From Kineococcus radiotolerans SRS30216 = ATCC BAA-149 (lineage in GTDB: Bacteria; Actinomycetota; Actinomycetes; Actinomycetales; Kineococcaceae), in NCBI RefSeq assembly GCF_000017305.1, contig NC_009806.1, positions 90,001-122,000 of the forward strand: 32,000 nt of DNA, in the 5' to 3' direction. A program made the position numbers and the translations under genes. The notes under the pieces are model-generated. The model had not been told where the DNA came from. It did no database searches and saw only the letters and a list, made by a program, of their open reading frames with translations. Positions 7,828-31,954 of this stretch are shown here, piece by piece (position 1 is the first letter of the stretch; every line of letters begins with the position of its first letter).

Positions 7828-8772
7828 ATGAACGCGCCTCAGTCAGCCGATGCCCGCCAGACGTCCACCGGCTCCACTCGCGCCCAGGACGCCCAGGACG
7901 CCCAGGACACCCAGGACCTGCGCAGCGGCCAGCACCCCGACGGGCTCGTCACCCCGCAGGTCCTGAGCCCGCAGCGGCTCGCCGAGGTCAACGAGGTCTA
8001 CCGCCGCCTGGCGCTCGCGGAGTTCGCCACGGAAAGCCGCATCGGCTTCCACCTGGCCTACTTGCGCACCTTCGCCTCCCCTCGCGTAGCCGGCTTGCTC
8101 AGTCACACCGGGCAGATGCAGAAGGAGCCGCGTCGGCGCGGCACCGACACCGGCCTGTTCATGTACGAGTTGATCCACCACGGCCTGGGCAGCGAGGTGG
8201 GTGATGAGGTGGTGCGACGGCTCAACGGGATGCACCACCGCTTCTCCATCCGCAACGAGGACTACGTCTGGATCCTGGGGACCTTCGTGGTGCTCGGGGT
8301 GCGTACGATTCGCCGCTTCGGGTGGCGAGAGCTGACCGTCTTCGAGGAGCAGGCCAGCATCGACTGGTACCGCGAACTGGCCGCTCGCATGGACCTGACC
8401 GACGTGCCGGAGACCTTCGAGGAGTTCGACCGCTGGTTCAGCGACTACGAACAGACGCAGCTGCGCTCTTCTCCGGCCGGTCGACAACTGATTGCAGCGA
8501 CTCTGGACACCGTCTTCGACCCCGTACCGACTCCTTTGCGCCCCTTGGCGGTACGGGCAGCGGCGGTGCTGCTAGAGGAGCCGGCGCGTTCCGCGCTCGG
8601 GTTCGCAGCGCCCGGGCCGATCGTGCGGACTGCAGTGCACGCGCTGTTCCGGTTGCGAGCGCTGCGACGGCGGCGACAGCCGACACCGCCGAGCTGGTTC
8701 AAGCCGGGAGCAGCCACCAGCGTGTACCCGCAGGGGTACGGGCTGAACGACTTGGGGCCCCGCACGCAGTGA
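7828..8772 (+). CDS. MpaB/DUF2236-family oxygenase-like protein
   Basis: LAYLRTFASPRVAGLLSHTGQM...RRGTDTGLFMYELIHHGL...RRLNGMHHRFSIRNEDYVWILGTFVV...GWRELTVFEEQA...DVPETFEEFDRWF matches the remembered consensus of oxygenase MpaB-family proteins. GGAGG lies 8 nt upstream, and the gap to the upstream gene is 5 nt. Confidence 0.55.
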   Translation: MNAPQSADARQTSTGSTRAQDAQDAQDTQDLRSGQHPDGLVTPQVLSPQRLAEVNEVYRRLALAEFATESRIGFHLAYLRTFASPRVAGLLSHTGQMQKEPRRRGTDTGLFMYELIHHGLGSEVGDEVVRRLNGMHHRFSIRNEDYVWILGTFVVLGVRTIRRFGWRELTVFEEQASIDWYRELAARMDLTDVPETFEEFDRWFSDYEQTQLRSSPAGRQLIAATLDTVFDPVPTPLRPLAVRAAAVLLEEPARSALGFAAPGPIVRTAVHALFRLRALRRRRQPTPPSWFKPGAATSVYPQGYGLNDLGPRTQ

Positions 8773-19852: not shown

Positions 19853-22465
19853 TCAGGTCGACTGCGCCAGCTCGACTGCCTGCTCGACCCAGAAGGTGCC
19901 GGCCGCCGGCCCGCCGTTGCAGGTGCCGTCGGACTCTCCCACCCGCTTGATCCACAAGCGCGCGTCCTGGTGCGAGTCGTCATCGACGGCGGCGGGGGTC
20001 TTACCCAGGGTGCGCCCTTCGGGGTTGCACCACTCTCCGTTGCCGCCAGAGCCGTTGCGGCTGGTGTCCACGACGTAGTGCGCGCCGTCGAGCTCCTTCG
20101 ACAGCGCTTCGGCGTAGGAGCGTTCGGCCGCGTCGGCGTTGAAGTTGGACACGTTGGTGGCGAACCCGCGGGCCTGATCGACCCCGGCCTTCCGCAGCCG
20201 CTGCGCGATGGTGTCGACCTGCCCACCGGTCCACGAGCTGTTGCCGGCGTCGAGGTAGACCGCCGCCCCGGCCTCGTCGAGGACCTGCACGGCCTTGCGC
20301 AGCAGGGCCAGGCGGTCGCCTTGCCCGTCGCACTGCCCGACCTGGGCGATGGCGTCCGGCTCGACGATGACCGCGGCACCGGTGCCGCGCAGGCCGTCCG
20401 CGACCTGCTCGACCCAGCCGGGATACTCCTGCGGGGAGAGACCACCGGCGGAGTAGGACCCGCAGTCGCGGCCCGGCGCGGCGTAGGTCACCACCACCGC
20501 GGTCTTGCCCGCCTTCTGGGCGGCGGTGGCGTAGTCGCGCACCGTGGCGGTCACGTCGCGGGTCCAGTCCCCGACCCACAACGCCACCCCGCCCTTCGCG
20601 ATTCGTTCCAGCGCTTGAGCGGCGTCGGGGTCGCTGCCGCGCACGTCGTCGATCTCCTGCGCGGCATAGCTCGGGTCGGCGTAGGGCGCGGCGGCGGCGA
20701 ACGGGTTACCGCCCGCCCCTGTCTCCTCCTCCGCTGCCTCGCCGCCGGTGTCGGTGCGGGTGTCGGCGTCTGCGTTCTCGGCCGCGGTCTCACCGTCCGC
20801 CTCATCCTCAGGCGACTGCGCGGCGTCGTCGGTGCCGCCGGTGGGCGCGAGGACGACGATGGTGGGCGCAGCCTGGCTGGTCAGGTTCAGCGTGCTGACC
20901 CCCTTCTCGCTGTCCAGGGCCTTCGCGCTCTGACCCGGGACGAAGACCTGAGCGTCGACGTCCTCGCCCACGTCGAGGGTGACCTCCCGGTCGGGGACGT
21001 CGAGGGGCTTCTCTCCGTCCTGGTCCCACACCGGGGCGGCCTCCCACACCGCGACGACGGTGGATCCGTCGGCGCGAGGCAGAACCAGCGTGGTCGTGTC
21101 GTCGCTGCCGCCGTTGACCTCCACCTCCGCTGGGGAGGCACTGCCGGTCGCGGACGGGCCCCCATGCTCGACCGTGGCGATGAGGTTCTTCAGCGCCGTG
21201 GCGACCGGCTTGGGGGATCCGTCGGAGTGGTACAGCCCGAACCGGTCCTCGGCCTCGGCGTTGTTGGAGCCCTCGTCCAGCAGCTCGTAGATGTAGCTGC
21301 GGTCCACGCCGTTCTGGAAGTTGGCGAGGAGCTGCTGGAGCTGGAGCACGGCCTGGGCGTCTTCGGAGACGTGGGGCTGGACCCCGTTGCCGGCGGTGGA
21401 GTCGGTGGCGGTGTGGAAGCCCAGCTCCGTCGCCCACATCGCCCCGCCGTCCTCGACCGCGCTGGACAGGGTGGTCCGCGCGTCGGCGGCCTGCGGGGTG
21501 GAGGTGTCCACGCCGGGGGTCACCTCAGCAGCCATCTGCACCTGGTGCTCGGTGTGCTCAGCGGTCTGCATCGCCCCCCCGGTGTAGGGGTGGCTGTTGG
21601 CGATGTCGGAGGGAACCTCACCCAGCTCCGCCCTCGACTCGTCGAAGACCAGAGACGGCGCGACCACGGCGACGTCCTCGCCCAGGGTGTCCTTGACCGC
21701 GGTGTAGAGCTCCCTCTGGTGGGCGCGGACCTTGCCCGCCCAGTCGCTGACCCCGGCGTTGTCGCGCTCGTTCACCCCCTCCACCGAGGTGACGTTGAGG
21801 TCGTTGTCCTTGATGAGCTGCAACTGGTTCTCGATGGTGAAGGACGAGGTCTCCGGCTGCGCGACCCAGTTGATCGAGATGCCGGCCTCGCTGAGGCGCT
21901 TCATCGACTCCAGGGGCACGGAGTCGGTGGAGCCCAGACCGTCGCGGACGTGCTTCACGCCCAGGTCCTCGGCCAGCTTCACCGAGTCCACGTCCCCGTA
22001 GGCGCGGTCGAGGTAGGCGACGTGCATCCCGACGCCGATGGAGTTCACGAAGCCCCCCGCGGTGAGGACGGTGTTGTTCGCGCCCGCGGGGAGGGCCGCG
22101 GCGTCCTTGCCGGTTGTCGTAGAGGGGTGGGGCTGGTCTTGGTCTTCTCGACCCTCATCCTCGGTTGCCTCGTTGCTCTCGCCGACGCCGGTGACCCAGC
22201 GCTTGAGCTTCTCCCAGAGGCTGTCCACCTCGTCCTGGTCGGCCGGGTCGGCGGCCTTCGGCGTCCGTGCGTCGGGGTCGATCGAGGCGGGGTCTTCCGA
22301 CTCGGTCGGTGAGGCCGACGAGGTGGGTGCCGGTGCGGCGCCGGCTGCAGCCTGCGCCGGTAGCGGGGCGAGCAGCGCACCGCCAGCAGCCAGGGCCGCG
22401 GCCAGGGCGAGGCTGCGGCGGTAACGAGGGGAGGGGCGGGACGACGGTGCGGTGGAGCTGGTCAT
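19853..22465 (-). CDS. secreted two-catalytic-domain glycoside hydrolase: N-terminal clan GH-A-like (beta/alpha)8 domain plus C-terminal GH6 domain
   Basis: Signal peptide RRSLALAAALAAGGALLAPLPAQAAAG. GH6 signature 1 is VVTYAAPGRDCGSYSAGG (about 20441-20494) and signature 2 is AVIVEPDAIA (20345-20374); both fit the PROSITE patterns exactly. Also YLDAGNSSW, GFATNVSNF, VVDTSRNG, WCNP and WIKRVGESDG. The N-terminal domain has NE (GVNERDN) and ATELGF, typical of GH-A acid and nucleophile positions. ATG 22465 has a GGAG Shine-Dalgarno. Confidence 0.85.
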   Translation of the reverse strand: MTSSTAPSSRPSPRYRRSLALAAALAAGGALLAPLPAQAAAGAAPAPTSSASPTESEDPASIDPDARTPKAADPADQDEVDSLWEKLKRWVTGVGESNEATEDEGREDQDQPHPSTTTGKDAAALPAGANNTVLTAGGFVNSIGVGMHVAYLDRAYGDVDSVKLAEDLGVKHVRDGLGSTDSVPLESMKRLSEAGISINWVAQPETSSFTIENQLQLIKDNDLNVTSVEGVNERDNAGVSDWAGKVRAHQRELYTAVKDTLGEDVAVVAPSLVFDESRAELGEVPSDIANSHPYTGGAMQTAEHTEHQVQMAAEVTPGVDTSTPQAADARTTLSSAVEDGGAMWATELGFHTATDSTAGNGVQPHVSEDAQAVLQLQQLLANFQNGVDRSYIYELLDEGSNNAEAEDRFGLYHSDGSPKPVATALKNLIATVEHGGPSATGSASPAEVEVNGGSDDTTTLVLPRADGSTVVAVWEAAPVWDQDGEKPLDVPDREVTLDVGEDVDAQVFVPGQSAKALDSEKGVSTLNLTSQAAPTIVVLAPTGGTDDAAQSPEDEADGETAAENADADTRTDTGGEAAEEETGAGGNPFAAAAPYADPSYAAQEIDDVRGSDPDAAQALERIAKGGVALWVGDWTRDVTATVRDYATAAQKAGKTAVVVTYAAPGRDCGSYSAGGLSPQEYPGWVEQVADGLRGTGAAVIVEPDAIAQVGQCDGQGDRLALLRKAVQVLDEAGAAVYLDAGNSSWTGGQVDTIAQRLRKAGVDQARGFATNVSNFNADAAERSYAEALSKELDGAHYVVDTSRNGSGGNGEWCNPEGRTLGKTPAAVDDDSHQDARLWIKRVGESDGTCNGGPAAGTFWVEQAVELAQST

Positions 22466-22477
22466 GGCTCGTCTCCA

Positions 22478-22510
22478 GACAAGGGGATGACAAGGGGATG
22501 ACAAGGGGAG
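22478..22510. repeat. 3 head-to-tail copies of 11-bp GACAAGGGGAT/G in the 5' leader of the GH6 gene
   Basis: Copies at 22478-22488, 22489-22499 and 22500-22510 (the last base differs). They lie between the terminator hairpin and the RBS/ATG of the minus-strand gene. Confidence 0.85.
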
Positions 22511-22545
22511 ACCGCCCACCGCAGAGGCTGCAGGTGGGCGGTCTC
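22508..22545 (-). terminator. 13-bp-arm hairpin downstream of the GH26-like gene
   Basis: GAGACCGCCCACC (22508-22520) pairs with GGTGGGCGGTCTC (22533-22545). The loop GCAGAGGCTGCA can extend the stem. It lies 41 nt after the stop at 22586 (minus strand). Confidence 0.55.
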
Positions 22546-22585: not shown

Positions 22586-24628
22586 TCAGCCGACGTCGCT
22601 GAACGCCTTGCCGTAGGCAGCAGCCGACTCCGGGACCTTGCCGGAGTTCAGCCGCCAGTTGTCGTTGTCCTTGTCGATGTTGAACAGGGACTCCGCGAAA
22701 ACGTCACCAGCGCCGGGTCCGGCGTTGCTGGAGAAGGTGTCGTGCATCTCGGTGACGAACACGCCTGCGTCGCCATCCTTCGCGCTGACCGACCACTCCC
22801 CGAACTCGATGGGCAGCCCCGCCGAGCGGGCCGCGGCGAGCCAGGTCTTGATGCCCTTCGGGCCGCCGCCACCGTCGAGCATGGTGGCCCGCTCGTCGAA
22901 CTCGGCCTTGCTGGCGACGTAGGGGTAGGCGTTGTAGTAGGACGCGCCCAGGAAGTCGATGCTGCCCTTGACGGCCTGGATCAGGTCGTGGCTGTCGCCG
23001 TCGTAGCCGTTGGACTCGTGGTTGAACCGGACGCCCAACCGCGCGTCGGGGAACTCCTCCTGCTGGATCGACCGGGCCCGCTGGAACGCCTTGGTCCAGG
23101 CGTCCTCCTGCCCGGCCTGAACGTGCCACGACATCCAGTAGCCGTTGGCCTCGTACCCGTACTCGATGTAGGCGGTCCCGTCACGACCGGCCCACTTCGA
23201 CTTCATGGTCGAGAAGGCGTGGCGCAGGTACTCGTCGTTCTGGCCGTCCGCGGTGGCTTCCCAGGAGGACCCATCCGGGAACGGCGGCATGGCGATGATG
23301 AGCGACTTGTCCCACTTGTCCGGGCCGAACTCCGCGCCCGGGTTGAGCTGGTCGGCGTTGCCGGAGTAGTCAGTCCATGTCGTCGCCACCTCGGCGGGGA
23401 CGCCGCGCAGCTTCTCGATGGCGGGGCGGTCCCCGGAGATACCGGAGAGCCAGTCCCCGGCCGCGACCTCAACCTTGCCCTTGCCGCTGCTGGTTGAGGC
23501 CGGCGTGGCGTCCACCTCGTCCCGCCCCTCTTCGCTGTCCTGCTCGCCGGCCTGGTCCTCGGCCGGGTCCTCGTTGTCACTGCTGGAGCCTTCGCCGCAG
23601 TCAGACGCCCGCTCGGCGGCCTTCTTGCGGACCTCGTCACTGAACGTCGGCGCCGCGCTGGGGCCGTCCTCCAGTGGGGCGTCGACCGTGTTGTCCTCGA
23701 CGCTGGTGGTGAGCTGGGCATCGGCCTGCGTGACGTCGCAGGTGTCCCCGCTGGTGTCCCCGCTGCTGTCATTGTCGTTCTTGCTGTCGTCTTCGTCCGT
23801 CGTCTCGGTGCTCGAAGGCGGGGAGCTGGTCGACGAGCTCGACGGGGAGCTCGTCGAGGAGGCCGCCGCGCTGGACGTCGCGTTGGAGGTCGGGGAGCTA
23901 GTCGGCGCGGCCGTCGGGGTGCTCTCCTCGTCCCCGCTGCCTTGCTCCTCCTTACCGTCCTGGTCGTCCTGGTTGTTGGAGTCCGGGGCGTTGTCGCTGC
24001 TCTCGGCGCTGTCGTTGCCGGTGATCTTGTCGACGAGGAGGTGCCAGGTGCGGGTGACCCAGGACTGGTCGTCGGGATCGGCTGCGGCCGGGGCCTGCTC
24101 GGGCAGGACCCACACCGTCTGCACGCCCTCGGTGCTGGCCTGGAGGGTGACCTCGGTGGAGTCTTCCGACGCCTCCTGGTCGACGACGGCACCGGTCGCG
24201 GCGGCGGCAGAGGCCGATCCGCTGCTGGTCTCGTCGCTGCTGCTGGACTTGGTGGCCGGCACGATCGCGTCGCCGTCGTCGGTGACCGTCTGGGTGGCGA
24301 TGGCCTTGGCGTCGACGGTGACGGTGAAGTCCTTGGACTGCGTCTCGTCCTTGCCGGACTTCTCTCCTGCCGCCTCGTTGGGGACGTAGACGAAGCTCAC
24401 CTGGACGCCACCGCCGGTGAGGCTGGCGACGCTGTAGCGGATGCTGCCGCCGGTCCCGGTGACGGTGGGGTGCAGGACGGTGGTCTCGACGTCGCCGTTG
24501 TCGGTCTTCTCGGCGGCGGTCGCTGCTCCGGGCTGGGCCAGGACGAGCAGACCGGTCATAGCCGCAGCCGCGGCGAGGGTTGTGGGGCGGCGTCTAGCGG
24601 AACGCGTCGTACGGGGCGGTGTGGGCAC
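22586..24628 (-). CDS. secreted protein with C-terminal GH26-like (clan GH-A) glycosidase domain, Ser/Asp/Thr-rich linker and N-terminal beta-rich domain
   Basis: GTG 24628 has AAGGAG 6 nt upstream. Arg-rich signal peptide (RSARRRPTTLAAAAAMTGLLVLAQPGAATAAE). YGYEANGYWMSW (about 23126-23165) resembles the GH26 HEMNGxWFWW acid/base motif. PIEFGEWSV is a candidate nucleophile. Confidence 0.55.
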   Translation of the reverse strand: MPTPPRTTRSARRRPTTLAAAAAMTGLLVLAQPGAATAAEKTDNGDVETTVLHPTVTGTGGSIRYSVASLTGGGVQVSFVYVPNEAAGEKSGKDETQSKDFTVTVDAKAIATQTVTDDGDAIVPATKSSSSDETSSGSASAAAATGAVVDQEASEDSTEVTLQASTEGVQTVWVLPEQAPAAADPDDQSWVTRTWHLLVDKITGNDSAESSDNAPDSNNQDDQDGKEEQGSGDEESTPTAAPTSSPTSNATSSAAASSTSSPSSSSTSSPPSSTETTDEDDSKNDNDSSGDTSGDTCDVTQADAQLTTSVEDNTVDAPLEDGPSAAPTFSDEVRKKAAERASDCGEGSSSDNEDPAEDQAGEQDSEEGRDEVDATPASTSSGKGKVEVAAGDWLSGISGDRPAIEKLRGVPAEVATTWTDYSGNADQLNPGAEFGPDKWDKSLIIAMPPFPDGSSWEATADGQNDEYLRHAFSTMKSKWAGRDGTAYIEYGYEANGYWMSWHVQAGQEDAWTKAFQRARSIQQEEFPDARLGVRFNHESNGYDGDSHDLIQAVKGSIDFLGASYYNAYPYVASKAEFDERATMLDGGGGPKGIKTWLAAARSAGLPIEFGEWSVSAKDGDAGVFVTEMHDTFSSNAGPGAGDVFAESLFNIDKDNDNWRLNSGKVPESAAAYGKAFSDVG

Positions 24629-25219: not shown

Positions 25220-28021
25220 TCAGCGCACGACGTGCAGGTGCGCGCGCTCCCCGGCCTCCGCCTGCGAGGGGTTGGTCACCGCTGGCGCGGTGGGAGGTCG
25301 GCGGCTGGTTGCTCGGACCCGCTGAGGCCGGCTCGGCCTGGGCGCAGCCTCGGCTCCGCGTGGGGCATTCACCTTGGAAGTGACCCGAGACCCGCCGGCG
25401 CGGGGCGAGCTTGCACGTGAGGGAGCGCGACGAGCCGGAGAGTCCTCCGCCTCGAGGTCGTCGTCGCGAGGGATGCGGGCGGTGATGAGGGTGCCGGCAT
25501 CGACCGTCAAGGACGCCGCGTCGTCTTGGTCGTCGCGCCACTCCAGGCTGCGCAGGTCCGGTTCGTCGAAGTCTTCTTCGGGGTCGCCCTCCAAGACGGC
25601 CCAGTGATCAGTCCCGTCGTCGACGAGCACCAGGTAGCCGGCCGCCAGCTCGTCGACGTCCAGATCGACCGGATCCCCGTAGCCGTCAAAGGGGTCACCC
25701 GCCGACCCGTCGAGCTCCCCCGCCTCGCTGAGGTCTTCACCGGAGTCGTCGTCCGCATCGATTTCCCCGCGGCCGAGGAGGTCAGCAGCTCTGGTCCTAC
25801 TGGCCTGGCCCTGACGCGGTCCTCGTCCGGCCGGCTCGATCGAAACGAACCGGCCAGCGCGCGGGTCGGGCTCGACGATCACGATTCCGTCGGTGTCTGC
25901 GGGGTCATGCTCGGCGGCGACGTTCGGCGGGAGCCATTCCGCGGCCAGGGCCGGGGACAGCAGGGATCGCGTCGCCAGGTCTGGACGCAGCTTCAGCGGG
26001 ATGATGCGGGCGACGTCTCGGAGGTGCTCGCTGGGTCGGGCTCCGACGCCGGCGGTCAGGGACGGTTGGAAGTAGGGACGGGACCACTGCGAGTACCGCA
26101 CGTCTTCTTCCTCATCGTTCTTCCCCTGACGCGGCTCGGGGGGAACGATGACCAGACGCTCGTGGGCAGCTTCACTGGGCCTGAGAGCACGCAGGATGTC
26201 CAGGTCGTCGTGCTGGCCTTCGCGGACCTTGCGGGGGTCGGGGGTCCAGAAGGTCTGGACCTCGATGACGTTGCCGGCCGGTCCCAGCGTGGTGCCGCGG
26301 CCGCGGATGCGGGGGACGCTGACGCCGGCGGTGTAGCTGTCCCACATCATGTTCGCGCCCTGCGGGGAGAGGCGTCCCAGAGCGACGCGTGCCCGGAAGT
26401 TGTCTCGTGCCTCACCGCTGAGGAAGTCCGCGTCGGGGCGCTGGGTACCCAGGACCAGGTGGACGCGGGAGCTGCGGCCCTTGCGGGCGATGGACTTCAC
26501 CGCTTCCAGTACGGGCGGTTTGCTGGGGTCTCCTCCACGGCCGGTGACGCGGATGTCGGCGTACCAGGGCAGGACGTTGCCGTAGAAGTCGCGGAACTCG
26601 TCCAGGATGAGCACGACCGGCTCGAAGTCGGTCTCGGTGGCTTCGCCGGCGATGACGGCGGCGTAGCGGTCCTCCATGATCTGCCAGACGGCGTGGATGA
26701 GGGCGACCTGCTCATCGACGTAGGTGGCGACGGTCTGGACGTTGGGCCATTCCCGGAATCCGAGGAACTCGATGCCCTTGCCGTCGACGATGTGAACGGG
26801 CCATCCCCACTTGGCGAAGCGGGCGACGATGTTGTGCAGCAGCACCGTCTTACCGGTACCGGTGGGGCCGACGACCATGAGCATCGGGTCGATGGCGGGA
26901 CGCCAGGCGATGGTGGCCCCGTCCTCGTCGACGGCGTAGGGGATCTCGACCCGGTCGTAGTTCAGCAGTGGATCCATGTCGTGCTCACGCGGGGCCGGGG
27001 AAGGTACCCGCGTTGGCAGCGTGGGGCGAAGCTCGAAGCGGACGAAGTCCTGGTGCAGCTGGAACCGCGCTCGCCAGCGGCCCGCCATCATCGCGGACAT
27101 GCTGCGCTCGACTCGTGCTCGCTGAGCGGCGGTGGCGACGCGAGTGCCGGCCTGGTGGTGGACGTTGAGGGCGACGATCTGGCGGGTGACCGCGGTCGCC
27201 TCTTCCGAGGGTGAGGAGGTACCCGCGGCGGGGGCCTGGTCGAAGTCGTCGGACTCGAGAGACGCCTGCATCTCGTCGAACTCCGGGGTGAGGCGGGCGC
27301 CGGGGCCCAGCAGGGACCGCACGAGACGTTCCGCGCGCAGGACTTCCAGCTCCAGGTAGGGGGCGAGGGAGGCGTCGCGGTACTTCCTGCGCAGCTGCAC
27401 GACTCCCTTGCGGGTGTCGTGGCGCACGATCACGTAGTCGCAGCCCAGCAGACGCGACACGGTGTCGAGCACGGACGTCTTCCACTTGGGATGGTCGGCG
27501 TTGACCACGCCTCGGGCGTAGGCGAGCTTCAGGCGCAGCGGCGTCCCGACCCACCATCCGTTCCATCGGGAGGCGATGACCCCCGCGCCGCCCTCCCCCG
27601 CCTCGCCCTTCTCGGGACGTTCCGGCTTCCAGCGGCTGGCTTCGACGTGACGGCGCGAGGGCTTGCGCAGTCCCAGCAGCGGGGTCAGGGCTTCGGTCAG
27701 GTCGTCGGCGAGCGCCGCTCGGCGTGCGCTGCGGACGCCGTGGACGGCTTCGTGCAGCGAGGCTGCTCCGCCGAGGACGGCGGCGACGGCTGAGAGCTTG
27801 GGGTAGCCGACCTCGGGAGCTGCGGCGTAGCCGGCCACGGCACCGGCCAGGCACACCAGCGAGCGCGTCGGCCAGGTCGTAGGCCGAGGAGGGAGCGCCG
27901 CAGTCCGGGTGAGCATCGTCGTGCCCGGCTCGCTGAGCAGCCCCGAGCCTCCGGGGTCGGTGCCTCCCAGCGAGGGTGGGCGTTCCTGCGTCGCAGCCGC
28001 GGCTTGCGCGAGGGAGGGCAT
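25220..28021 (-). CDS. FtsK/SpoIIIE-family DNA translocase (TraB/TcpA-like conjugative type), 933 aa
   Basis: Walker A VVGPTGTGKT (26846-26869). Walker B VVLILDEF. HLVLGTQRPD is typical of FtsK/SpoIIIE. There is only one P-loop domain. AGGAG lies 6 nt upstream of ATG 28021. The C-terminal 330 aa or so are acidic or low complexity. Confidence 0.85.
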   Translation of the reverse strand: MPSLAQAAAATQERPPSLGGTDPGGSGLLSEPGTTMLTRTAALPPRPTTWPTRSLVCLAGAVAGYAAAPEVGYPKLSAVAAVLGGAASLHEAVHGVRSARRAALADDLTEALTPLLGLRKPSRRHVEASRWKPERPEKGEAGEGGAGVIASRWNGWWVGTPLRLKLAYARGVVNADHPKWKTSVLDTVSRLLGCDYVIVRHDTRKGVVQLRRKYRDASLAPYLELEVLRAERLVRSLLGPGARLTPEFDEMQASLESDDFDQAPAAGTSSPSEEATAVTRQIVALNVHHQAGTRVATAAQRARVERSMSAMMAGRWRARFQLHQDFVRFELRPTLPTRVPSPAPREHDMDPLLNYDRVEIPYAVDEDGATIAWRPAIDPMLMVVGPTGTGKTVLLHNIVARFAKWGWPVHIVDGKGIEFLGFREWPNVQTVATYVDEQVALIHAVWQIMEDRYAAVIAGEATETDFEPVVLILDEFRDFYGNVLPWYADIRVTGRGGDPSKPPVLEAVKSIARKGRSSRVHLVLGTQRPDADFLSGEARDNFRARVALGRLSPQGANMMWDSYTAGVSVPRIRGRGTTLGPAGNVIEVQTFWTPDPRKVREGQHDDLDILRALRPSEAAHERLVIVPPEPRQGKNDEEEDVRYSQWSRPYFQPSLTAGVGARPSEHLRDVARIIPLKLRPDLATRSLLSPALAAEWLPPNVAAEHDPADTDGIVIVEPDPRAGRFVSIEPAGRGPRQGQASRTRAADLLGRGEIDADDDSGEDLSEAGELDGSAGDPFDGYGDPVDLDVDELAAGYLVLVDDGTDHWAVLEGDPEEDFDEPDLRSLEWRDDQDDAASLTVDAGTLITARIPRDDDLEAEDSPARRAPSRASSPRAGGSRVTSKVNAPRGAEAAPRPSRPQRVRATSRRPPTAPAVTNPSQAEAGERAHLHVVR

Positions 28022-28397: not shown

Positions 28398-30284
28398 CTA
28401 CTCGGTCACTTCGGTCGAGTCCTCCGACGCGGCGGCAGAGTCCTCTGAAGCGGTGGCGCCCTGTTGGGCCATGTTCTCGGTGTTGACTGCCCCAGCCCAT
28501 GGTGGCTGAGCACGACCGGCGATCGAGGCACCCGGGGCGACCTGGATGACGTCGTCCGCTTCAGCGGCAGTCCGCCCTTCGATGCGGGCGCCCAGTCCCA
28601 GCCTGAGGTTGCCCTCGATGTAGGCGTCCTGCCCTAGCTCGAGGTCACGGTCGCTGTGTGCGTCCTGCGCCAACTGAAGGTGGCCATCGATGTGGGCGTC
28701 CTGCTCCAGCTGAAGATGGCCGCCGATGTAGGCGCCCTCCCCCAGCGTGAGGTGGCTGCCGATGTGGGCGCCCTCCCTCAGCCAGAGGACGCCGTCGATG
28801 TGGGCGTGCGGCCCCAGCCAGAGGTCGCCGCCGATGTGGGCGCCTGGCCCCAGCGTGAGGTCGCCGCCGATATGGGCGCCCAGCCCCAGCCAGAAGACGC
28901 CGTCGATGTGGGCGCCTGGCCCCAGCGTGAGGTCGCCGCCGATGTGGGCGTCCGACCCCAGCCGGAATTCGCCGCCGATGTGGGCGCCTGGCCCCAGCTG
29001 GAGGTCGCCGCCGATGTGGGCGCCCAGCCAGAACTTGCCGCCGATGTGGACGCCTGGCCCCAGCTGGAGGTCGTCGTCGATGTGGGCGCCTTGCCCCAGC
29101 GTGAGGTCGCCGCCGATGTGGGCGTCCGACCCCAGCCAGAGCTTGCCGCCGATGTGCGCGCCTGGCCCCAGCCAGAAGACGTCGTCGATGTGGGCGCCTG
29201 GCCCCAGCGTGAGGTCGCCGCCGATGTGCGCCCTCGACCCCAGCCGGAAAACACCGATGTGGGCGCCTTCGACGAGCGCGAGGTCGCCCGAGAGGTAGAA
29301 GTTGGTGAGGTCGATCTTCCCGAGGCGCTGCCCGGTGAGGGTGAAGTCGTCCAACAGTTGGGCGCCCCGCAGGTTGACCTCGATCGGTGGGGTGTTCCCG
29401 TCGATGAGGGGAAGCATTGCGGTGATCAGGCGCTGGGCGGTGCGGCGCACCTCGGCTTCGGCGTCTCGAAGATCACGAACTACCTCATCACTGGGCTGCC
29501 AGGCGCGAGGGCGCGGCTGGTGGGGACCGGTCTCGGCAACGTCGGCGGTTGCATCGCCGTCGCCCGTCGTCTCGTCTGAGTCGGCCGGTGCGTCGTGGTC
29601 GGGGTGGTGGAACGGCTGCCGCAGGTAGGCGCAGAGGATGTCGACCACCGTCGGCACCCGGCCCCGGTCTTCGTCGGCGAGGCGGAACAGGCTGTGCATG
29701 CCGCCGAGTCGAACGGCTGCGGCGGTGTGGCCGAGCTGCTCGACGGCTTTGCCGAAGCGGTCGTCGCGGGCGCCGGTGACGTCGCGCTGGTCGGTCAGGT
29801 CGTTGGCGCGGCGGGTCTCCTCGAGGGCGGCTCGGGTCAAGCTCGCGGTGTGGTGACTGACGACGACACCGATGCCGGCGGCAGCGGCAGCCATCACCGC
29901 CCCGGACAGGACGCCTAGCGGCGACCGGGCGGAGATCTCCGCGGTGACGCGGGCGTTCGGGTCGGCCGGCGTGGGCTGCACGTTGTCGGGGACGAACAGG
30001 TCGGGTAGGTACACCCAGATGCCGACGATGACCGCGACGGCGACCACGATGATGCCGACGATGAGCCAGATCAACCTGGGCGGCAGGCCGCCTGCGGTGT
30101 TCGTCGGGGAGACGTTGCTGGCCTTACCGGCTCGGTCCGGATCGCGGTCTGCGATCGGTGGAGATTTCTTGGCCGACTTGTCGACGGCGCTCTCTGGATC
30201 GGCCATGCCAAGGGATCTTGCCGCTCGCTCGTTGATCCGTCTCGTGGACGCTGGCACAGAGTGCACTACCGCGTCGCGGCGCAC
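28398..30284 (-). CDS. membrane-anchored repeat protein: TM, then helical domain, then pentapeptide-like segment, then about 20 x 12-residue xAHIGGDLxLGx repeats
   Basis: TM LIWLIVGIIVVAVAVIVGIWVYL. RFGKAVEQLGHTAAAVRLGGMHSLFRLA...PTVVDILCAYLR resembles the N-terminal module of actinobacterial pentapeptide-repeat proteins (from memory). The repeat block spans about aa 339-575. Start is uncertain (GTG 30284 or ATG 30206). Confidence 0.8.
   Translation of the reverse strand: MRRDAVVHSVPASTRRINERAARSLGMADPESAVDKSAKKSPPIADRDPDRAGKASNVSPTNTAGGLPPRLIWLIVGIIVVAVAVIVGIWVYLPDLFVPDNVQPTPADPNARVTAEISARSPLGVLSGAVMAAAAAGIGVVVSHHTASLTRAALEETRRANDLTDQRDVTGARDDRFGKAVEQLGHTAAAVRLGGMHSLFRLADEDRGRVPTVVDILCAYLRQPFHHPDHDAPADSDETTGDGDATADVAETGPHQPRPRAWQPSDEVVRDLRDAEAEVRRTAQRLITAMLPLIDGNTPPIEVNLRGAQLLDDFTLTGQRLGKIDLTNFYLSGDLALVEGAHIGVFRLGSRAHIGGDLTLGPGAHIDDVFWLGPGAHIGGKLWLGSDAHIGGDLTLGQGAHIDDDLQLGPGVHIGGKFWLGAHIGGDLQLGPGAHIGGEFRLGSDAHIGGDLTLGPGAHIDGVFWLGLGAHIGGDLTLGPGAHIGGDLWLGPHAHIDGVLWLREGAHIGSHLTLGEGAYIGGHLQLEQDAHIDGHLQLAQDAHSDRDLELGQDAYIEGNLRLGLGARIEGRTAAEADDVIQVAPGASIAGRAQPPWAGAVNTENMAQQGATASEDSAAASEDSTEVTE
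28575..29270. repeat. 36-bp coding tandem repeat array (about 19-20 units)
   Basis: Repeated blocks such as GCCGCCGATGTGGGCGCCTGGCCCCAGCGTGAGGTC occur within CDS 28398-30284. The periodicity also produces several spurious overlapping ORFs in other frames. Boundaries are approximate. Confidence 0.85.
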
Positions 30285-30589: not shown

Positions 30590-31192
30590 TCAGGCCCCCA
30601 GAGCGGCGCTGGGGGGTTCTTCTCCCCCGGCACTGCTACCGAGCGAGCCCTCGATGGTGAGGGGGCTGGCACTCGCGGCTGGTGCTGGATCGGCGCCACC
30701 TTGGGGCTCCTGATCGGGGGTGCGGCGACGGTTCCAGTACGCGCGCATCGCCTGGCTCTGGCGAGCGCTACCGGCCGGGCTGGGTCCGCGCCGGGTCTGC
30801 TCGGGCGCGGGCGGGAAGAGCTGGCCGTCGTTGTACTGCTCCTCCAGCAGCTCGCACATCAGCGTCATCCCGGCGATGACCAGCTCGGACTTGGTGTTGA
30901 AGCCGTCCACCTCCAGCTGGGTCCAGTACCAGGCGTTCTTGGCCCGCTCCTCCAGCTCCTTCGGGGTGTAGTGGCTGTGCGCTCGCAGCCCCGTCGAGCG
31001 GTCAGGGTTGTAGCGCCCGCCGCGGCGCGCTTCGGCAAGGGGTGCCGCCGGGGACTCCACCGACTCCTTGCCAATGTGTCCTGCCTTGCCGTTGCGGGGT
31101 TCGCTGCCGAACGGATCGGCAAGGGGGCTGTCGTGGGTCTCCGGGTCCTCGCTCACCGGCCCGCCTCTCGGCTTCGTAGCGGGTAGTGACAT
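30590..31192 (-). CDS. putative ribbon-helix-helix-type DNA-binding protein (ParG/CopG-like centromere-binding or repressor protein)
   Basis: Disordered N-terminus, then LRAHSHYTPKELEERAKNAWYWTQLEVDGFNTKSELVIAGMTLMCELLEEQYNDGQLFP. This fits a strand-helix-helix pattern seen in small actinobacterial partition or repressor proteins (from memory). The tail is basic. The gene is flanked by repeated GTGACA half-sites. Confidence 0.4.
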   Translation of the reverse strand: MSLPATKPRGGPVSEDPETHDSPLADPFGSEPRNGKAGHIGKESVESPAAPLAEARRGGRYNPDRSTGLRAHSHYTPKELEERAKNAWYWTQLEVDGFNTKSELVIAGMTLMCELLEEQYNDGQLFPPAPEQTRRGPSPAGSARQSQAMRAYWNRRRTPDQEPQGGADPAPAASASPLTIEGSLGSSAGGEEPPSAALGA

Positions 31193-31226
31193 GCCACATC
31201 GGGACGGCGTGGCTGTGACATGTCAC
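31186..31226. promoter_or_regulatory. GTGACATG repeats including the perfect 12-bp palindrome GTGACATGTCAC
   Basis: GTGACATG at 31186-31193 overlaps the start codon of 30590-31192. GTGACATGTCAC lies at 31215-31226, 23 bp upstream of that start. Confidence 0.5.
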
Positions 31227-31258
31227 TACTGCCGGCTGCGCAGGGTGCCTCGTTCACA

Positions 31259-31954
31259 TCAGCTCCCGTCGGAGGCGGTGGTGATCTTCCCCGGCGCCCA
31301 CGAGCCGCTGCCCTTGCTGACGCGGACTGTCGACAGCTCGCGTTCGGTGCGCTCCCCCTGACCGTCGAGGGCCGCCCACATGACGACGACGTCGACGACG
31401 ATGGGCAGATCCTGGGTGTCGTCGCGGCCGGTGCGCAGGACGGCGTGCGCCTGCTGGTGCGGTTGCGTCCACCCACCGGCTTCCACATCGGAGGCAAGGG
31501 CCTGCCAAGCGACCTCGAGCAGCTCCTGACCATCAGTCGACCCCAGCAGGGCCGGGTCGGTGATGGCGCGGTCCCGCGGCAGCGAGCTGTTGAGGAGGTC
31601 CTGCAGGACCTGGTCGCTGACCGGCCCTGCCAAGGTGTCCTCGGGCGTGGGGATCGAGGATGCGTCCTCGCCCGCCGCGGGCGTGGGCGGGGAGGGGGCG
31701 ACGCTGTCGGTGGTGGATGCGGCCGGCGGAAGCACGGGATGTGGAGCTCCTGCGGTCGTCGTGAGCGCCGGCGGCGCCGGGGACGACGCGCTGCCGCCCT
31801 CGACGTTGCCCGTGGGAGGCGTGGTGGCTTGCCGTTCGGTGGCGGTCGTCGAGGTGGCGGCAGGCGTGGGCGCCTCCCACGGCAAGGGAACAGGCAGCAA
31901 GCAGAGTGCCCCGACCACCGCCAGCAGCGCCGCGGCGCACGACGGCAGCAGCAC
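31259..31954 (-). CDS. membrane-anchored Pro/Thr/Ala-rich protein with small C-terminal alpha+beta domain (possibly 5'-incomplete)
   Basis: N-terminal hydrophobic helix LLPSCAAALLAVVGALCLLPV, then an extended PT-rich linker, then the C-terminal domain (LLEVAWQALASDVEAGGW...IVVDVVVMWAALDGQG...LSTVRVSKGSGSWAP). The frame stays open upstream of GTG 31954 to the window edge. Confidence 0.5.
   Translation of the reverse strand: MLLPSCAAALLAVVGALCLLPVPLPWEAPTPAATSTTATERQATTPPTGNVEGGSASSPAPPALTTTAGAPHPVLPPAASTTDSVAPSPPTPAAGEDASSIPTPEDTLAGPVSDQVLQDLLNSSLPRDRAITDPALLGSTDGQELLEVAWQALASDVEAGGWTQPHQQAHAVLRTGRDDTQDLPIVVDVVVMWAALDGQGERTERELSTVRVSKGSGSWAPGKITTASDGS

Follow-up and report, generated by a model that had tools for sequence, protein, structure and literature searches.

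A 12-residue tandem repeat in a predicted membrane protein of Kineococcus radiotolerans is probably a lengthened variant of its family's pentapeptide-type repeat

The stretch of DNA analysed here, the window, comprises 32,000 nucleotides of Kineococcus radiotolerans SRS30216 (contig NC_009806.1, positions 90,001 to 122,000 of the forward strand); all coordinates below are those of the window. On its minus strand lies a gene whose product combines a membrane anchor with a long array of 12-residue units. We conclude that this repeat is most likely a one-residue-longer variant of the pentapeptide-type repeats found in related membrane proteins, and not a new repeat family. The open reading frame (ORF) occupies 28398..30284 (-) and encodes 628 residues when read from its GTG. 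The ATG at 30206 (30204-30206), 78 nucleotides further in, is a likelier start than the GTG at 30284 because the database protein P0001, of 602 residues, and the ortholog P0002 both begin there; the GTG is probably over-extended. A third annotation, P0161 (622 residues), has yet another start, within 30204-30284 (-). The G+C content at third codon positions in this frame, 0.86, is of the coding type; the repeat and the high G+C content account for the ORFs that overlap it in other frames and on the opposite strand. The gene would be plasmid-borne, on the linear plasmid pKRAD01, with which a G+C content of about 70% agrees.

How is the array built? Between 28580 and 29248 Tandem Repeats Finder reports a period of 36 (18.8 copies, 75% matches, score 559) and also a period of 72 (score 623). 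A direct-repeat search finds 17 in-register copies at 36-nucleotide spacing and one 30-nucleotide step. Translated, the array (28557..29267 (-)) consists of 20 units of about 12 residues, xAHIGGDLxLGx, spanning residues 340-576: 17 full 12-mers, one 11-mer (residues 340-350), one 10-mer (residues 411-420) and a degenerate last unit. An earlier reading, made from the letters alone (hereafter the sequence-only reading), had proposed about 20 copies with His at the same position in 17. Both figures hold: unit by unit, position 3 is His in 17/20, Tyr in 2/20 and Arg in 1/20. The 36-bp DNA units are less uniform than the ‘near-identical’ copies it described, with a mean pairwise identity of 74%; the best pairs reach 92-97%, and exact direct repeats of at least 40 nucleotides are present. 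Within the 17 full units A2, I4 (16/17), Leu or Phe at position 8, L10 and G11 (14/17) are near-invariant. The array is acidic, with a net charge of -20 when His is left out, and contains 21 His and 22 Asp. A 36-residue super-repeat is seen in units 2-7; neither unit-distance identity nor lag autocorrelation separates super-periods of 24 and 36 residues. An argument for coil size from the placement of Phe at position 8 was dropped: by eye this Phe falls in odd units only here, but in consecutive units in K. rubinsiae.

The sequence-only reading placed the repeats behind a single transmembrane helix. The protein is indeed anchored, but by two helices. Helix 1 (residues 69-92, PRLIWLIVGIIVVAVAVIVGIWVY; 30009..30080 (-)) has a Kyte-Doolittle peak of 3.0 and is picked out by charge counts as well as by AlphaFold2, which models it as a helix. 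Helix 2 (residues 123-146; 29847..29918 (-)) is hydrophobic, rich in Ala and Gly and highly conserved in the family. A basic N-terminal tail (isoelectric point 10.4) precedes helix 1, the loop between the helices is acidic, and an Arg-rich stretch follows helix 2. By the positive-inside rule, this distribution of charge suggests that the helices probably form a membrane hairpin whose two ends lie in the cytoplasm, and that the solenoid probably faces the cytoplasm.

Behind the hairpin comes a helical module (ERFxKAVEQLGH..VRLGG.H.L.RLA; VVD.LCAYLR.P; E.EVRRTA.RL; 29385..29846 (-)) which, according to alignments A1 and A3, is common to actinobacterial pentapeptide-repeat proteins. An alignment of 82 proteins has G159, R166 and R196 invariant and L158, V165, C192, Y194, L195, P198, V253 and R254 nearly so. 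The motifs VRLGG..L.RLA, CAYLR.P and EVR.TA.R are all present and place the protein in the actinobacterial membrane-anchored repeat-protein family. One motif, AYLRQPFHHPDHD (AYLRQPFHHPxHD, residues 219-231; 29592..29630 (-)), consists of invariant columns of A1 and is specific to the clade with 12-residue repeats. It is invariant in 10/10 members of that clade, paralogs with Ser-type repeats included, whereas pentapeptide-type relatives have AYLRMPY at this site and no His cluster. It is thus a better-conserved cluster of His than repeat position 3 and, where the helical module ends, may mark a conserved site for a metal or a ligand.

Between module and array lie junction coils with a spacing of about five residues (NLRGA QLLDD FTLTG ...; 29268..29384 (-); consensus DLTGAxL in A3), whose sequence shows homology to the coils that open the solenoid of the pentapeptide-type relatives. 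Beyond the array, sequence and the AlphaFold2 model indicate a C-terminal cap, made of a short helix and one last strand pair, followed by a disordered acidic tail (28401..28556 (-)). The tail contains a 21-bp tandem duplication (28417-28457 (-); two copies, 85% match) encoding ASEDSAA twice.

To what family does this protein belong? A word-indexed search finds about 10 full-length relatives, all in Kineococcus genomes and metagenomes. An exhaustive HMMER search returns 4,806 proteins at E <=1e-3, of two kinds: matches to the N-terminal module, and giant proteins matched through the repeats only. With the N-terminal module alone, E-values run to 1e-13 to 1e-25. Among 82 relatives identified through this module, PF13576 (Pentapeptide_3) is found in 54, PF00805 in 15 and Hexapep or LbH in only 3-4, which bears out the earlier view of the module as typical of actinobacterial pentapeptide-repeat proteins. 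Within that set, matches to Hexapep, LbH and Bactofilin are confined to the Kineococcus clade. A scan of one genome per species places the 12-residue clade in three Kineococcus species only and pentapeptide-type relatives in 55 Micromonospora genomes. The number of units varies from 12 to about 27 among relatives, in keeping with the copy-number variation foreseen from the tandem DNA; the syntenic ortholog P0002 (locus L001), 70% identical, has 12 units against 20 here. Database names given to family members range over acyltransferase, carbonic anhydrase-like and bactofilin. The repeat protein has no match among the PADLOC defence models, and in PHROGs it matches families of unknown function through its repeats only.

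In the giant proteins (750 to >6000 residues; P0019, P0021-P0031 and others) the long arrays are built of 12-residue units, for example GASATVSNNLTV, GNNANIGNQLTV and GSDVSLGSKLYV-VNDASLNSKLFV, with the same pattern of inward residues, which Pfam calls Hexapep or LbH_EIF2B. They are probably surface or tail-fibre proteins, and their fold may raise the same choice between a left-handed helix and a pentapeptide-type solenoid that we weigh below.

What, then, is the 12-residue unit? The period of the pentapeptide-type relatives is not a 10-residue double unit. It is 11 residues (6+5), and in the Kineococcus clade it is 12, with occasional 11-mers. The unit GAHFHGDASLD of a Motilibacter protein (P0032, 38% identical overall) aligns with GAHIGGDLTLGP without a gap over the first 10 columns; the two share G, A, H, G, D and L, with one turn residue added and Ala 8 changed to Leu. 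BLASTP with the repeats alone gives E 1e-4. When the two repeat-domain alignments are compared by hhalign, the probability is 92.7% and E is 4e-7 over 170 columns, starting in the junction coils. The sequence-only reading did not recognise the 12-mer as any described repeat. It does, however, pass the Pfam thresholds for Hexapep and Bactofilin, and it aligns with the 11-mers of its own family.

The Hexapep match is one of several results that point away from a pentapeptide-type fold. The hidden Markov model (HMM) of Hexapep (PF00132) scores 64.1 bits against a cut-off of 27 (E 6e-18, five stretches), while the pentapeptide models PF00805 and PF13576 give no match in Pfam even at E <=1. A search of PDB sequences with a profile of the repeat domain returns left-handed beta-helix acyltransferases only (E 2e-8 to 1e-3), and no pentapeptide-repeat structure. 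The unit can be read as two hexads, A-H-I-G-G-D / L-x-L-G-P-G. In type I left-handed helices position B1 is small (V, A, S, T or C), B3 is aliphatic and B4 is Gly (bioRxiv 10.1101/2023.06.27.546660); B3 and B4 obey these rules here, and the Gly at B4, the Pro at T1 and the Asp in the turn all conform. The 36-residue super-repeat of units 2-7 would equal two 18-residue coils. Might a genuine left-handed parallel beta-helix of the hexapeptide superfamily, with 18 residues per coil, have replaced the pentapeptide domain on this anchor? Such a helix may trimerise as transferase helices do; it would have no catalytic domain, and Pfam finds none in the repeat protein, so a transferase-type function is not indicated. 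We consider this the less probable course, though one to be taken seriously. The small-B1 rule fails in alternate hexads, where Leu (14) or Phe (3) occupies the position in 17/17 full units, the other hexad having Ala. The NCBIfam matches to LpxD, LpxA and NeuD are partial, cover the repeats only and fall far below their cut-offs (e.g. 53 against 207). The alignment with the family's own 11-mers also tells against replacement.

The predicted structure tells against it too, and here profiles and prediction are in conflict. From the single sequence, AlphaFold2 gives a predicted local distance difference test score (pLDDT) >90 across the array. From an alignment of eight sequences the repeat domain is predicted as a regular solenoid with a mean pLDDT of 91.5 and a predicted template modelling score of 0.88; inputs of one or eight sequences may yield over-confidence on idealised repeats, and this too must be set against our interpretation. 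DSSP assigns strands H-I and L-x-L in every unit with a strict 12-residue periodicity, and at RLGKID, HIGVFRL and HIDDVFWL a strand of 6-8 residues runs unbroken through the supposed hexad corner. With both models, Foldseek finds no match at E <=0.001 among 350,542 PDB chains. The best matches are weak and belong to right-handed solenoids, namely MpAFP 3p4g, ice-binding proteins, SufD, autotransporters, a phage tail fibre and EfsQnr; leucine-rich repeat and curlin-like models lead the matches in BFVD. For both models, neither a left-handed beta-helix nor a bactofilin is present among the top 50 Foldseek matches listed. A solenoid was thus rightly anticipated by the sequence-only reading; the left-handed or bactofilin-like character it suggested is not seen among those matches.

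How many residues would make up a coil? The DSSP strands and the Foldseek results together lead us to about 24, each unit supplying a long side and a four-residue turn and two units closing one coil. The handedness and the number of residues per coil are read indirectly, from Foldseek negatives and DSSP strings, a further point that counts against the assignment. The match to EfsQnr, a right-handed quadrilateral beta-helix, is weak (E 1.3-2.2), as would be expected if the coil had 24 rather than 20 residues. We rejected a 12-residue coil on geometric grounds: a four-residue turn could not close an eight-residue strand, and four large inward side chains would be too big. Taking sequence and prediction together, we lean, without great assurance, towards the family's own solenoid, widened by one residue per double unit, over a left-handed helix of the acyltransferase type.

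Could the protein instead be a bactofilin-like scaffold that polymerises while tethered to the membrane and organises a transfer apparatus? The Pfam model (PF04519) scores 33.1 bits against a cut-off of 27.9, and the paralog P0017 bears the NCBI name ‘bactofilin family protein’. But the match covers only residues 513-591, the degenerate C-terminal end of the array, where it overlaps stronger Hexapep matches, and no bactofilin structure is among the Foldseek matches listed. Bactofilins have a domain of about 100 residues with short tails, unlike the membrane hairpin, 150-residue helical module and 240-residue array found here. We regard this explanation as very improbable.

The sequence-only reading made much of the histidines, which it stacked, some 17 of them, along a single edge. 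A2 and I4 point inward and leave position 3, which lies between them, on the outside of the solenoid; the occupant of position 3 differs from relative to relative. It is Ser in 11/14 units of P0004, 15/18 of P0005 and 9/13 of P0007; Arg, Tyr or His in P0002, the syntenic ortholog, with His in only 3/12 units; His or Arg in P0008; His or Tyr in P0006 and in K. rubinsiae (L006); and mostly His, in 10/17 units, in P0009. His at position 3 is therefore not a conserved feature of the homologs, and the ladder of His is lineage-specific. Within one protein, moreover, the count of His is inflated by homogenisation of the repeats. The nearest relatives with 11-residue units are His-rich too (A-H-F-H; 33 His in 199 residues in P0032), so that His at position 3 may be ancestral to this branch and repeatedly lost. 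A single edge would be expected in neither geometry: each of the three faces of an 18-residue left-handed coil would show His and the variable position 9 by turns, and in a 24-residue coil there would be two ladders of about nine His each. Searches of the literature for histidine ladders in beta-helices found nothing relevant.

Do the rows of His, with the Asp residues and the HHPxHD cluster, amount to a metal-binding or pH-responsive device, sequestering or sensing, for example, Cu, Zn or Ni at the membrane? The 21 His and 22 Asp of the array, the His-rich composition of the nearest pentapeptide-type relatives and the invariance of FHHPxHD across the clade would agree with this, and K. radiotolerans reportedly accumulates copper. 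Yet in about half of the clade, the syntenic ortholog included, Ser, Arg or Tyr stands in place of the position-3 His; homogenisation by itself can make a column uniform; and the neighbouring genes include none for metal homeostasis. We consider such a device unlikely.

We turn to those neighbours. Downstream and in the same orientation, 377 bp away, lies a gene for an FtsK/SpoIIIE-like ATPase of 933 residues (25220..28021 (-)), 88% identical to its counterpart in L001. Its C-terminal half is long, acidic and of low complexity; in PADLOC it matches only ATPase models, mad8 (E 6e-16) and an SspH-type model. Upstream are two small genes, of 200 and 231 residues (30590..31954 (-)), which match no family and are syntenic with L001. 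That locus, a metagenomic contig, holds a VirB4-like ATPase, a 768-residue protein, an NlpC/P60-SLT hydrolase, two small proteins, the repeat gene and the FtsK-like gene, the VirB4-like ATPase and the NlpC/P60 hydrolase lying further upstream than the two small genes. From this gene content the region looks like an actinobacterial conjugative-transfer cluster. Gaps of more than 300 nucleotides on either side suggest that the repeat gene is a separate transcription unit; a consensus scan for terminators and promoters between it and its neighbours gave nothing usable. A megablast search of the plasmid collection PLSDB, which does not include the source of the window, matched nothing but 170 bp of FtsK in a plasmid of Curtobacterium.

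Several other genes of the window deserve mention. An ORF of 680 residues downstream of the FtsK-like gene (22586-24628 (-)) has a homolog in L001 (60% identity) and another in Kineococcus sp. SYSU DK006 (L007 19626-21323; 37%), about 8 kb from a paralog of the repeat gene, which hints at a related mobile element. An ORF of 888 residues (19853-22519 (-)) ends in a glycosyl hydrolase family 6 domain (PF01341, E 8e-56), an unusual type of hydrolase for conjugative-transfer clusters. A gene for an MpaB/Lcp-type oxygenase (PF09995) occurs at 7828-8772 (+) and again on a metagenome contig (L005 1629-2462), directly upstream of the paralog P0004; this co-occurrence may be a coincidence.

The link to the translocase drawn by the sequence-only reading is real at this locus, but the neighbour is kept in the closest ortholog only. 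The other loci of the 12-residue clade (L002-L008) share no translocase, most family members do not lie beside one, and no conserved partner gene was found among the family loci; for a role in transfer these are adverse findings. The 55 Micromonospora loci (L009-L063) are chromosomal and syntenic with one another; they contain an M48 peptidase, EACC1, TetR, MFS and a SEC-C/TPR protein, neighbours that give no clue to function. Literature searches on pentapeptide proteins in conjugation turned up nothing relevant.

How might such a protein have arisen? The account that we favour, at a little better than even, is of an expanded pentapeptide-type solenoid on a membrane hairpin, specific to Kineococcus and evolving fast. 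The family shares an architecture of basic N-terminal tail, predicted two-helix membrane hairpin, conserved helical module, beta-solenoid and acidic tail, and in most members Pentapeptide_3 repeats, whose double unit has 11 residues (6+5), build the solenoid. In one small clade, known so far from Kineococcus and similar metagenome contigs, the double unit would have gained one turn residue to become 12 (6+6), and the small inward Ala at position 8 would have given way to Leu or Phe, filling a larger lumen. The pattern of the unit would thereby converge on the bacterial-transferase hexapeptide motif, and the six-residue periodicity acquired by widening would account for recognition by the Hexapep HMM. 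The fold would remain that of a pentapeptide-type solenoid, expanded to two units, or about 24 residues, per coil. The array would evolve by gain and loss of units while His, Tyr, Arg and Ser replace one another at the outward position 3; the rows of His would therefore be a lineage-specific surface decoration rather than a feature that defines the family.

As to function we can offer only a tentative and rather doubtful proposal. Tethered on the cytoplasmic side of the membrane, the solenoid would be a stiff, acidic rod of about 5 nm. MfpA and Qnr, examples of soluble pentapeptide-repeat proteins, bind proteins and mimic DNA, and by analogy the rod might present a protein-binding or DNA-mimicking surface. 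Its gene would be a separately transcribed accessory of the conjugative-transfer region, beside the FtsK-like translocase. Improbable, in our judgement, is the fuller conjunction in which a right-handed coil of about 24 residues, unseen in solved structures, reached from the pentapeptide-repeat fold through longer faces and misleading to HMMs by its convergence on the left-handed hexapeptide motif, carries two rows of about nine His that serve with HHPxHD as a working metal- or pH-responsive surface at the transfer apparatus of a conjugative plasmid.

If the expanded-pentapeptide account is true, the coil size of a solenoid can change one residue at a time, and simple repeat HMMs can misfile such solenoids. 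The clade provides a natural series of rods lined with His, Tyr, Arg or Ser, 12 to 27 units long, of possible use for solenoid design. The plasmid-borne copy beside a DNA translocase is a tractable place to probe the role of a large actinobacterial family. No result here points to a new kind of system.

How does the protein compare with systems already known? The arrays of the giant proteins, written G-x-x-A-x-[IV]-[GS]-x-x-L-x-[VL] (P0019, P0027, P0030, P0038, P0039), have the same inward 12-residue pattern (E 1e-49 to 1e-15). They differ in being secreted or phage-like proteins of 750 to >6000 residues with Thr, Ser and Asn exposed, with neither membrane nor helical module and with no His. 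Bactofilins (PF04519) share a beta-helical repeat with Gly-rich turns and a weak HMM match; the array described here is much longer, its flanking architecture is different, and none of the structural matches listed connects the two. With the PF00132 proteins LpxA, LpxD and GlmU it shares the six-residue [LIV]-G periodicity, Pro and Asp in the turns, and significant matches to HMMs and PDB sequences. Unlike these enzymes, it has neither a transferase domain nor an active-site region, it has Leu or Phe at the small-residue position in alternate hexads, its predicted structure matches no left-handed helix listed, and it is anchored in the membrane and belongs to a different family. The closest known proteins are the actinobacterial membrane-anchored pentapeptide-repeat proteins (PF13576), such as P0032 of Motilibacter aurantiacus, P0011 of Nonomuraea and those of Micromonospora (L009-L063). 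From these it departs in its period of 12 (6+6) rather than 11 (6+5) residues, in Leu or Phe rather than Ala at the inward position 8, in a central Ile or Leu rather than Phe, in matching the Hexapep but no pentapeptide HMM, and in the clade-specific FHHPxHD. It agrees with them in the transmembrane hairpin, the helical module (VRLGG..L.RLA, CAYLR.P, E.QVR.TA.R), the junction coils and the order of domains, and its unit matches theirs column for column, G-A-H-[FI]-x-G-D-x-x-L.

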